From: Candidatus Cloacimonadales bacterium
Lineage (GTDB): Bacteria > Cloacimonadota > Cloacimonadia > Cloacimonadales > JAFGVF01
Direction: 5' to 3'
NCBI GenBank assembly: GCA_963667035.1
Contig: OY762964.1
Location: 2,976,001-3,040,000, forward strand
DNA: 64,000 nucleotides
Numbering within the stretch: the stretch's first letter is position 1; each line of letters starts with the position of its first letter. Positions 1,985-3,861 of the stretch are shown here, one piece after another. Both the position numbers and the translations under genes were made by a program. A model generated the notes under the pieces. The model was not told the DNA's origin. It did no database searches and saw only the letters and a program-made list of their open reading frames with translations.

Positions 1985-2013
1985 ATGCGAAGGCAATTGC
2001 CTTCGCATTTTTT
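1985..2013 (+). terminator. Intrinsic terminator of the glyS operon
   Basis: Perfect inverted repeat ATGCGAAGGC-AATT-GCCTTCGCAT followed by a T-run. Confidence 0.85.
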
Positions 2014-2047: not shown

Positions 2048-2069
2048 ATTGTATACATATGTATACAAT
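2048..2069. promoter_or_regulatory. Perfect 22-bp palindrome; candidate transcription-factor/enhancer site
   Basis: ATTGTATACATATGTATACAAT is its own reverse complement; another GTATACAA half-site lies at 2081-2088. Confidence 0.5.
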
Positions 2070-2345
2070 CTGTAAAGAACGTATACAAAATAGAATATTC
2101 TAATCGTGATGTATATCACTATACAGCTTTAAAGTTAACTAAATCATAGTGTTATGGTGGTATGTAAAGTTGCAGTAACTGATGTTGCATAGTGTTATTA
2201 CCTAGATAACTGACACCAAAATTAACGAATCAGGTAAAAATCCATTTTCCAGAGTATATTCATAAAAAAAATATGAATTTATATCTGCATGATATTCAAT
2301 GATATATAGTGCTATGGAAAATATTTGTTACAAAATTATTCCTTT

Positions 2346-2361
2346 TGGAACGGCTGTTGCT
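2346..2361 (+). promoter_or_regulatory. Sigma-54 (-24/-12) promoter
   Basis: TGGAAC-GGCTG-TTGCT fits TGGCAC-N5-TTGCW with exact GG-N10-GC spacing. Confidence 0.7.
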
Positions 2362-2371
2362 TTATTATAGT

Positions 2372-2496
2372 TTGATTGCAGTTTGCAAGATAATTAAGGT
2401 AGTTTCCTACCTCCTTCTATCTTAATTATCATCCCCTTCAATAACGGATACCTCCTTGAAGTCCCAGCCCCCCCTGACTGGGACTTTCCTTTTTTT
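2372..2496 (+). ncRNA. Candidate sigma-54-dependent small RNA (or terminated leader) with anti-SD CU-rich motifs
   Basis: Lies between the -24/-12 promoter and a strong terminator; stem GATAATTAAG/CTTAATTATC (2389-2398/2421-2430); TACCTCCTT twice (2408, 2449); no ORF in the track. Confidence 0.55.
2459..2496 (+). terminator. Intrinsic terminator with C-rich loop
   Basis: AAGTCCCAG-CCCCCCCTGA-CTGGGACTT followed by TCCTTTTTTT. Confidence 0.8.
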
Positions 2497-2541
2497 CTTT
2501 ACAGCATTTGAAACTTCCATATTTGTATTCTCAGGAGTGAT

Positions 2542-3861
2542 ATGAAAAAACGTAATTACTTATTAATGGCTACTGATTTGATAATTCCTGTTTTGCTTCT
2601 CATCATCATAACTATTCTATTTAGAAGTAAAAATTGGGATATACTGATTCAATACAAGTTCTGGTCGAACACGAGTGGATGGTATCTTAAAGATACTTTC
2701 CCATGGAGACAACTCTATCTTTACGGGAACATCCCTGCTTTATTAATTTCGTTAACGGCTTTGATTGTGTATTGCTTGAGTTTCTTTAAGCATGGATTGG
2801 TTAAATATCATAAACTTTCCGCATATTTGATAGCTGTTATGATACTTGGTCCCGGTATAATTATCAACAGTGTACTCAAACAGAATTGGGGACGTCCGAG
2901 ACCTCGTGATGTTGTTGAGTTCGGTGGTTATTACCAGTTTGAGCAAATTTGTGATTATGATAGGTCAAGTGGTGGAAATTCATTTCCTTGTGGTCACGCC
3001 TCAATGGGATTCTTCTTCTTTGCACCAGCAATACTACTTAGAAGGAGTAAACTTAAGTTTTATGCTCTACTCCTATTTAGTTGGGTTTTTGGTCTTTCTA
3101 TAGGGCTAGCGAGAATTATACAAGGCGGGCATTTTGCTAGTGATGTAATATGGTCTGCTATGATTGTTTATTGGGTATCATATCTATTGTATTATGTTTT
3201 TGCATTAGATAAGAGTCTTTATTCTACTAAAGTAGTTTTTGAGAGGCTCAGGAATTCAAAGACTGTTGTTGCGTTAGCAATTACTTCAGCAATTCTGTTG
3301 ATTGGCTTAGTTTTTACTGCGTCTCCATATAATAGAACAAAGCGTTATGACAAATTTAACAACTTTAATCCTGCTGTTAAATCTATTTTCAATGTTAAGA
3401 TATTGGATGCTAATGTTCAGGTGAACTTCGACGACAATTTTGAGTATCTAATGAGTGTACAAGGATTTGGTTTTCCAGGCAGTAAACTTATGAATAAGTT
3501 CTCATCTTCTGTCTCCGATTCGATTCAAGTGTTTGATTGGAATCAGACTAAAAAGGGATTCTTCTCTGAGTTTAGTCAGCAAGGGGAACTTGAATTTCCT
3601 ACGGTCATGTCAGGTACTATAAATATAGAAATCACAGAAGGAGATTTATTGCTGAATTTAAAGGATTATGATTTAAAATCATTAGATCTTAATATTACTC
3701 TAGATAAAGGCAATTTGTTTATCTTTGATAAAGATGGTACTGGTTTTTATTATGAAATCAATGCTGTTAATGAAGATAAAGTATATTCCGGTGGTGGTAA
3801 CCATTCTATACGAGTTAAGGCAAAAGTAGCAAGTCAAGATAACTTTAAGTTAGACAAATGA
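2542..3861 (+). CDS. PAP2-family membrane phosphatase with C-terminal soluble extension
   Basis: PAP2 motifs K.NWGRPRP, SFPCGHA, RIIQGGHFASD; multiple transmembrane helices. Confidence 0.85.
   Translation: MKKRNYLLMATDLIIPVLLLIIITILFRSKNWDILIQYKFWSNTSGWYLKDTFPWRQLYLYGNIPALLISLTALIVYCLSFFKHGLVKYHKLSAYLIAVMILGPGIIINSVLKQNWGRPRPRDVVEFGGYYQFEQICDYDRSSGGNSFPCGHASMGFFFFAPAILLRRSKLKFYALLLFSWVFGLSIGLARIIQGGHFASDVIWSAMIVYWVSYLLYYVFALDKSLYSTKVVFERLRNSKTVVALAITSAILLIGLVFTASPYNRTKRYDKFNNFNPAVKSIFNVKILDANVQVNFDDNFEYLMSVQGFGFPGSKLMNKFSSSVSDSIQVFDWNQTKKGFFSEFSQQGELEFPTVMSGTINIEITEGDLLLNLKDYDLKSLDLNITLDKGNLFIFDKDGTGFYYEINAVNEDKVYSGGGNHSIRVKAKVASQDNFKLDK

Follow-up and report, generated by a model that had tools for sequence, protein, structure and literature searches.

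A conserved sigma-54-type RNA element with twin anti-Shine-Dalgarno-like motifs lies ahead of an LpxF-like PAP2 gene in one genus of Cloacimonadota

Cloacimonadota is an uncultured phylum that is common in anaerobic digesters and sediments. We analyzed a 64,000-nucleotide stretch of the genome of a Candidatus Cloacimonadales bacterium (hereafter the window; G000:C1:2976001-3040000). The genome is a single contig of 3.10 Mb with 35.6% G+C. Within the window, a 580-bp gap between a membrane protein gene and a PAP2-family gene holds a sigma-54-type promoter followed by a predicted short RNA that closes with an intrinsic terminator. The predicted RNA carries the same 9-mer, UACCUCCUU, twice. A first-pass annotation of this DNA had proposed a sigma-54-driven small RNA (sRNA) that mimics the anti-Shine-Dalgarno tail of 16S rRNA, and the features it listed were all found where it had placed them. 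By sequence comparison, the element, which is single copy in this genome, is a real, conserved and previously undescribed RNA element of sigma-54 type that is restricted to one genus of these uncultured bacteria. The features are collected in Table 1.

Table 1. Features of the RNA locus, its neighbors and the analogous RNA of sister genera
Feature	Position	Strand	Remarks
Sigma-54 promoter	2346-2361	+	-24/-12 type, TGGAAC-N5-TTGCT; GG and GC 12 nt apart, the consensus spacing
Predicted RNA, ~120 nt	2374-2496	+	First conserved base to end of T tract
5' hairpin	2376-2388	+	Predicted fold; 5 bp, 3-nt loop; 5 of 5 pairs invariant, sole change in loop
Hairpin 1	2389-2430	+	14-bp stem, invariant 14-nt loop (2403-2416); minimum free energy and centroid structure
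Linker, 28 nt	2431-2458	+	Predicted single-stranded; UCCCCUU (2432-2438) and GGAUACCUCCUU (2446-2457)
Intrinsic terminator	2459-2496	+	9-bp stem (2459-2467/2478-2486), invariant loop CCCCCCCUGA, then T-rich tract
Candidate upstream activator site	2050-2087		Four TGTATACA-like repeats at 2050, 2060, 2070 and 2080, exactly 10 bp apart
PAP2-family gene, 439 amino acids	2542-3861	+	Pfam PAP2, E = 5.4e-24; ATG at 2542
Open frame from TTG within CCUCCUUG	2456-2545	+	Crosses terminator, stops on PAP2 ATG (ATGA overlap)
Predicted membrane protein gene, 250 amino acids	1207-1959		Upstream neighbor; N-terminal Cys-X2-Cys...Cys-X2-Cys motif
Terminator of the membrane protein gene	1985-2008		That gene's own terminator
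Type IX secretion system (T9SS) cargo protein gene, 1554 amino acids	4500-9164		MAM, Ig-like, lamin-tail and Por_Secre_tail domains
Type B RNA copies in G008	L085:519-670 and L085:1509-1660		Also L086-L092

The initial length estimate for the RNA was ~125 nt. The non-coding stretch and its terminator held up, and the length was corrected to ~119-123 nt because conservation begins at G2374. The 9-mer (TACCTCCTT in the DNA) occurs at 2408-2416 and again at 2449-2457, with ATCCCCTT between the copies at 2431-2438, just as had been described. Counting both strands, TACCTCCTT is found only 27 times in the 3.1-Mb genome, so two same-strand copies 41 nt apart are unlikely to arise by chance; arithmetic from the genome counts gives about 0.006 expected same-strand pairs within 50 nt. 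The second copy forms part of GGATACCTCCTT (2446-2457), which had been noted to differ by one base from the 3' end of 16S rRNA. The three 16S genes of this genome end in GGATCACCTCCTTT, a canonical tail, and GGATACCTCCTT is this tail minus one C.

We then considered the predicted fold. The 129 nt downstream of the promoter gave -33.8 kcal/mol (z = -5.55), and 0 of 200 shuffles folded equally well. Hairpin 1 presents the first UACCUCCUU in its loop, and the second copy sits in the single-stranded linker, just 5' of the terminator. The predicted unpaired probability of the motif was 1.0 for the loop copy in all four species that carry the RNA (see below) and 0.51-0.77 for the linker copy. A small alternative hairpin within loop 1 was rejected, being broken in two of the four species. 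The strong terminator with a CCCCCCC loop that had been reported is indeed present: the C-run (2468-2474) lies inside a 10-nt loop, and the T-rich tract extends to 2496. A simple terminator scan with a loop limit of 8 left this terminator unlisted because its loop of 10 exceeds that limit. Rfam returned no matches at gathering thresholds across the whole window; the best permissive match was the COG2827 RNA, at 17.7 bits against a threshold of 49.1 (E = 0.75).

Using BLAST against 41 related genomes, we found full-length copies in three other species of the same genus only, at 95, 88 and 87% identity. A covariance model built from the four copies recovered only those four among 151 genomes of the order (E ≤ 7.8e-31). 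Eight weak matches to the model (E = 0.06-0.99) were inspected, and none had the promoter or the motifs. A scan of metagenome contigs for the twin-motif pattern yielded 22 loci, comprising one true copy, identical to that of G002, and 21 unrelated sequences.

In the four-species alignment, mean column identity was 95% inside the RNA versus ~60% in the upstream spacer. Conservation restarts at G2374 and stops with the T tract, and sequence upstream of the promoter is barely alignable. Promoter, structured non-coding RNA and terminator thus form one conserved unit, as had been anticipated. Between species, identity of the RNA is 87-95%, and that of the PAP2 proteins only 52-62%. Substitutions were concentrated in the stems, with 12 of 56 paired columns variable compared to 2 of 52 unpaired columns (Fisher p = 0.0086), and 26 of the 28 linker columns were invariant. 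Compensatory double changes were seen in three pairs. One falls in hairpin 1, which also has three one-sided G-U changes and keeps 98% of its alignment cells paired; the other two fall in the terminator stem, both in one species, with 100% of cells paired. The proposed structure as a whole has 99.1% of its cells paired; its pairing and compensatory values were reached by only 9 of 500 shuffles. The CU motifs are therefore conserved and predicted to be unpaired, in line with the original proposal. Taken together, this conservation pattern is what would be expected if the information of the RNA lay in its loops and not in its stems.

The promoter was examined in its genomic context. All four species have the same TGGAAC and TTGC, and the 5-nt spacer between them varies. 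The spacing of GG and GC follows the sigma-54 consensus, which bears out the first-pass call. The genome encodes rpoN, as that call requires, in a 486-codon open frame whose product matches Sigma54_DBD at 169.6 bits, and it has 11 strong Sigma54_activat matches to enhancer-binding proteins, none of which adjoins the RNA locus. TGGAAC-N5-TTGC occurs at 16 sites in the genome versus ~3.8 expected from base composition. Open reading frames of at least 80 amino acids leave 9.9% of the genome uncovered, and this fraction holds 6 of the 16 sites, or 6 of 11 when a leading T is required. Reversed-pattern controls gave 4 and 1 sites, of which 0 were non-coding. The looser pattern TGG-N9-TGC was not enriched within the window (19 versus 16.4 expected); thus, only the fuller motif carries weight. 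A genome scan indicated that sigma-54 sites here are typically TTGGAAC-N5-TTGC, placed 22-58 nt ahead of start codons with good Shine-Dalgarno (SD) sequences. One such site outside the window, TTTGGCATGAAATGTGCA at G000:C1:2628879, lies 42 nt before a type IV pilin-like gene and can serve as an internal positive control for this class of promoter.

Further upstream, the phased TGTATACA-like repeats lie ~260-300 bp from the -24 element, at the same promoter distance in 4 of 4 species. They constitute the only conserved block of an otherwise unalignable 330-bp spacer, and the paired repeat pattern has no other intergenic occurrence in the genome. These repeats may be regarded as a reasonable candidate binding site for an enhancer-binding protein.

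Sister genera of the same family carry a second, near-invariant RNA (type B), which was reached through a 26-nt BLAST match to the promoter in G008. All 7 genomes of genus g2 have type B, as does the one genome of g3. It shares with the window RNA the TTGGAAC promoter form, AAUAAC...CUCCUUG right 5' of the terminator, a C-rich terminator loop and a similar size; here AAUAACCUCCUUG stands just ahead of a long terminator hairpin (z = -5.57). In some sister species, similar GTWWAC repeats are found ~190-200 bp upstream of a type B copy. The two RNAs differ at the 5' end, where type B has a 9-bp hairpin with a 29-nt CA-rich loop, and in setting, since type B has no PAP2 linkage and one of its copies overlaps the last ~25 codons and 3' untranslated region of a T9SS cargo gene. 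The promoter-like site of that copy is inside coding sequence, reading Gly-Thr-Asp-Val-Ala. Column identity there is 0.73-0.94 in the coding part, reaches 0.94-1.0 between the promoter-like site and the hairpin and falls to ~0.5 beyond, and the stem shows compensatory changes. In this genome, we saw no type-B-like promoters inside the ends of T9SS genes. The second copy in g2 is intergenic, 0.5-1 kb downstream; in G008 the next gene is convergent with it, which makes this copy a free-standing RNA gene. No Rfam match was obtained for type B.

A composite pattern, consisting of the promoter and then ACCTCCTT 45-75 nt downstream, was found in 11 of the 12 genomes of the family and in 0 of 191 genomes from the other 12 families of the order, with one match of the reversed control in 203 genomes. 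Each genome of the family carries either the window-type RNA (type A) or type B. Homology between the two was considered and rejected, the best covariance-model E value being 0.11; since the window-RNA model misses type B, we call the two analogous, not homologous. The 26-nt promoter similarity to G008 is probably a feature of the promoter class, because other sigma-54 promoters here also have A/T-rich TTAT/ATA after the -12 element. The analogy nonetheless raises the odds that the shared module, ACCUCCUUG before a terminator, is a trans-acting seed.

Two further units of this general form were observed elsewhere in the genome. The first (L129, G000:C1:2677060-2677300, minus strand) combines a sigma-54 promoter, a ~100-nt RNA and a terminator. 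Its core, GUCGGCGAGAGGGUUUA, is conserved, its terminator loop reads CUCCCC, and the promoter and compensatory stem changes are retained in G001 and G003. The other (L130, G000:C1:1287420-1287600, plus strand) has an ATGGAAC-N5-ATGC promoter, a ~60-nt RNA and a terminator and is 84% identical in G001.

The gene downstream of the RNA encodes a protein whose first ~220 residues are LpxF-like; the C-terminal part, of similar size (~220 residues), has no Pfam match. Against the NCBIfam profile of LpxF, a lipid A 4'-phosphatase and the best named likeness, the protein scored 92.4 bits, far short of the equivalog cut-off (400), although the match spans positions 17-215 of the 217 in the profile. On this evidence, we describe the protein as an LpxF-like member of the PAP2 family. 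The PAP2 proteins of the other species are 52-57% identical in amino acid sequence to this one. An alignment-based PAP2 scan gave 15 loci, of which the 3 at 53-62% identity carry the RNA element; a single-protein PAP2 scan of contigs found nothing.

We next asked whether the host would be suited to regulation through SD sequences. SD use is general in this genome: 36% of open reading frames have GGAG at positions -20 to -4, compared with 5.9% for a control window. Neither Hfq nor CsrA was found in the genome. About 9 of the 27 perfect 9-mer complements precede a start codon. The frequency of AGGAGGTA followed by a start codon was the same as that of the reversed control in three sister genomes and was uninformative.

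We believe, at about even confidence, that the window RNA is a termination-released, Hfq-independent sRNA of the anti-SD type that doubles as the leader of the LpxF-like PAP2 gene. In this model, sigma-54 holoenzyme, activated by an enhancer-binding protein that is possibly bound at the phased repeats, would start transcription near 2372-2374. Most transcripts would stop at the intrinsic terminator, releasing the ~120-nt RNA. The released RNA would show its 9-mers in the hairpin loop and linker, together with further C-runs, and these motifs would be complementary to strong SD sites (AAGGAGGUA). By pairing with the ribosome-binding sites of several mRNAs, it could lower their translation in an SD-using host that lacks a recognizable Hfq. 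Terminator read-through would in turn yield the mRNA of the PAP2 gene 41 nt downstream, so that one signal would deliver both the RNA and an envelope-remodelling enzyme.

Several observations weigh against this model. No separate PAP2 promoter was recognized in the ~41-nt gap after the RNA, so that the RNA would at a minimum form the 5' leader of PAP2 mRNA. All four copies are tied to the PAP2 gene, in place of the free-standing gene that might be looked for in a trans-acting RNA, and the narrow distribution shared by RNA and PAP2 gene is equally expected of a cis-acting leader. The stand-alone status of type B is only an analogy for the window RNA. Candidate targets also fared poorly. In a genome-wide duplex scan, the best SD-located match to the linker was a T9SS cargo gene with a 13-nt complement, whose pairing is lost in the best G001 homolog (44% identical, which may not be an ortholog). 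For loop 1, the best match located at an SD was in a TusA/DsrE-like gene, and the extended pairing is lost in all three of its orthologs. A single perfect 14-nt complement to the full loop 1 was found (G000:C1:122781-122794, outside the window); it is antisense to an 881-aa gene and is probably due to chance. Finally, the covariation statistics are thin, coming from only four sequences and one identical metagenome copy.

The foremost rival, which we consider somewhat unlikely, is that the element is purely a cis-acting leader of the PAP2 gene, i.e., an attenuator. The sigma-54 promoter would then be the PAP2 promoter, the terminator would set the level of read-through, an effector (a protein, small molecule or ribosome) would read the unpaired motifs, and the released RNA would have no function. 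This possibility had already been raised by the first-pass annotation, in a form in which CCUCCU masks the AGGAG ahead of PAP2. The positional part of that proposal stood: in each of the four species the PAP2 ortholog directly follows the RNA, with a fixed distance of 36-41 nt from T tract to start codon. RNA and ortholog co-occur in 4 of 4 genomes of the genus (g1), and neither was detected in the family's 8 other genomes (PAP2 E ≤ 1e-10). The absence of another recognizable PAP2 promoter points the same way, as does the layout of the locus, which resembles that of the other sigma-54 promoters and start codons with a terminator-bearing leader inserted. Read-through of the terminator is the simplest route to PAP2 expression suggested by this arrangement. 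The masking part of the proposal did not stand. The SD of the PAP2 gene is unconserved across the four species (AGGAG, GGGAG, GGUGA and none), and pairing of the C-rich regions to the PAP2 start was no better than that of shuffles, which did at least as well at rates of 0.11-0.69 in all four species. No conserved anti-terminator was visible in the alignment; a single helix competes with the terminator, and its overlap with the terminator base is 3 bp. Four more distant PAP2 loci, the next in similarity (29-42% identity; L073-L076, one from Cloacimonadota, two from KSB1 and one from Delongbacteria), had no such leader. The analogous RNA of the sister genera, moreover, has a stand-alone copy.

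A bolder form of trans action, which we view as doubtful, is that the RNA serves as a sigma-54-switched stand-in for the anti-SD tail of the ribosome, competing with 30S subunits for the strongest SD sites genome-wide or titrating a reader of the 16S 3' end. If so, translation would be shifted as a whole during an envelope response rather than at a few chosen mRNAs. Together with type B and the two further units, the RNA would then be part of a form of riboregulation that is specific to Cloacimonadota, under enhancer control and linked to genes for the envelope and type IX secretion.

Rather improbable, in our judgment, is that the RNA acts as a decoy or sponge, in which tail-like motifs, one of them GGAU-ACCUCCUU (the 16S 3' end minus one C), titrate a protein or another G-rich RNA that reads the 16S tail or CU-rich RNA. 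The 12-nt likeness to the genome's own 16S tail, the invariance of the unpaired motifs and the lack of a conserved mRNA target among those we found are consistent with such a role. The likeness emphasized by the first-pass annotation extends only so far, however. The CCUCC core is common, but the GGAU extension is kept within this genus only and is absent from both loop 1 and the sister-genera RNA, so only a CCUCCUU core is common to all. No candidate partner is known to us either, CsrA and Hfq being among the proteins not found.

We give still less credence to translation-coupled attenuation, in which a ribosome on the TTG 2456 frame would block the terminator hairpin and re-initiate on PAP2. 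The pyrBI leader is a precedent for ribosome-coupled attenuation. The frame, which reads the C7 loop as Pro-Pro, stays open in all four species until within ~5 nt of a candidate PAP2 start, even though indels in the T tract shift the reading frame, and three of the four species have earlier stops in both remaining frames. A large share of the open frame is pyrimidine-rich, though, and thus unable to hold stop codons, and G000 and G001 are close kin, which leaves only about three independent observations. The frame starts with TTG and has no clear SD ahead of it in the four species, with only GGA as a possible one. The peptide is unconserved downstream of the hairpin, and the compensatory stem changes are non-synonymous (Gln to Ser, Gly to Arg), which argues for selection on pairing and not on the peptide. 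Hairpin 1 and the first motif would also be left unexplained.

It is very improbable that there is no plus-strand RNA at all and that the locus is a protein-binding region of the DNA or a minus-strand small protein gene with the motifs as perfect SD sequences (AAGGAGGUA): the reverse complement does have two strong SD-like sites, with a 12-15 codon frame after the first, but this mini-frame is ruled out by a frameshifting 1-nt deletion inside it in one species (column 49), the substitutions are compensatory for plus-strand pairing, the T tract is on the plus strand only, and the promoter points the same way.

Regarding the neighboring genes, the upstream membrane protein matched no Pfam or NCBIfam family. 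The T9SS cargo gene of Table 1 begins ~640 bp past the end of the PAP2 gene.

We consider the locus a well-bounded candidate for further work, with a clear promoter class, a testable seed and a plausible link to lipid A remodelling. One bacterial family appears repeatedly to couple sigma-54 promoters to short, terminator-ended RNAs. If the cis reading is correct, the element would represent a new type of leader for an envelope enzyme. If the RNA acts in trans, the anti-SD-seed strategy of alpha-proteobacteria and Firmicutes would extend to relatives in the FCB group and to sigma-54 control. Under either reading, the kind of mechanism is already known, and the closest precedents are compared below.

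Leader-derived sRNAs that are freed by premature termination include rnTrpL and SreA/SreB, and in pyrBI the leader frame spans the terminator. The window RNA would resemble rnTrpL and SreA/SreB in that a 5'-leader terminator frees a short RNA and read-through gives the mRNA. It differs from these leaders and from pyrBI in that we found no ligand-binding fold, SD-led leader peptide or anti-terminator.

Qrr1-5, NrsZ and CrcZ are sigma-54-dependent sRNAs, and to our knowledge no known sRNA of this class has a duplicated anti-SD-like seed. A limited literature search found no paper joining sigma-54 control with an anti-SD seed and no regulatory RNA described for Cloacimonadota. According to an excerpt, GlnZ derives from the RpoN-dependent glnA mRNA (PMC9731577); another paper, again going by its excerpt, concerns an RNA sponge of Caulobacter (PMC12559287). 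With Qrr1-5, NrsZ, CrcZ and GlnZ, the window RNA shares a -24/-12 promoter, predicted control by an enhancer-binding protein and a short length. Those sRNAs are proteobacterial and mostly Hfq dependent; the window RNA is not proteobacterial and would act without Hfq.

RsaE/RoxS of Firmicutes block initiation through several C-rich regions, which pair with G-rich SD sequences, as described in part of PMC4409812. Like the sRNAs of RsaE/RoxS hosts, the window RNA would have to act without Hfq. The RsaE/RoxS motif is a C-run, whereas that of the window RNA is CCUCC. RsaE/RoxS are free-standing genes under ResDE and other sigma-A regulators, unlike the window RNA, and we found no sequence or Rfam model match between them.

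The alpha-r14 (NfeR1) sRNAs and AbcR1/2 of alpha-rhizobia show the same combination of invariant loops and variable stems as the window RNA. An excerpt of PMC10746234 describes identical, ultraconserved anti-SD motifs of alpha-r14/NfeR1 in unpaired regions, alongside variable stems; the motifs act redundantly on the translation initiation regions of many mRNAs. The motif itself differs, being CCUCCUCCC in three hairpins of alpha-r14 and UACCUCCUU twice in the window RNA. So does the promoter, which for NfeR1 is of the sigma-70 type under LsrB/NtrC (same excerpt of PMC10746234) and here is of the sigma-54 type. The window RNA also comes from a different phylum, is fused to a gene leader and has no Rfam family at threshold. 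The alpha-r14/NfeR1 sRNAs are the closest working models for the window RNA.

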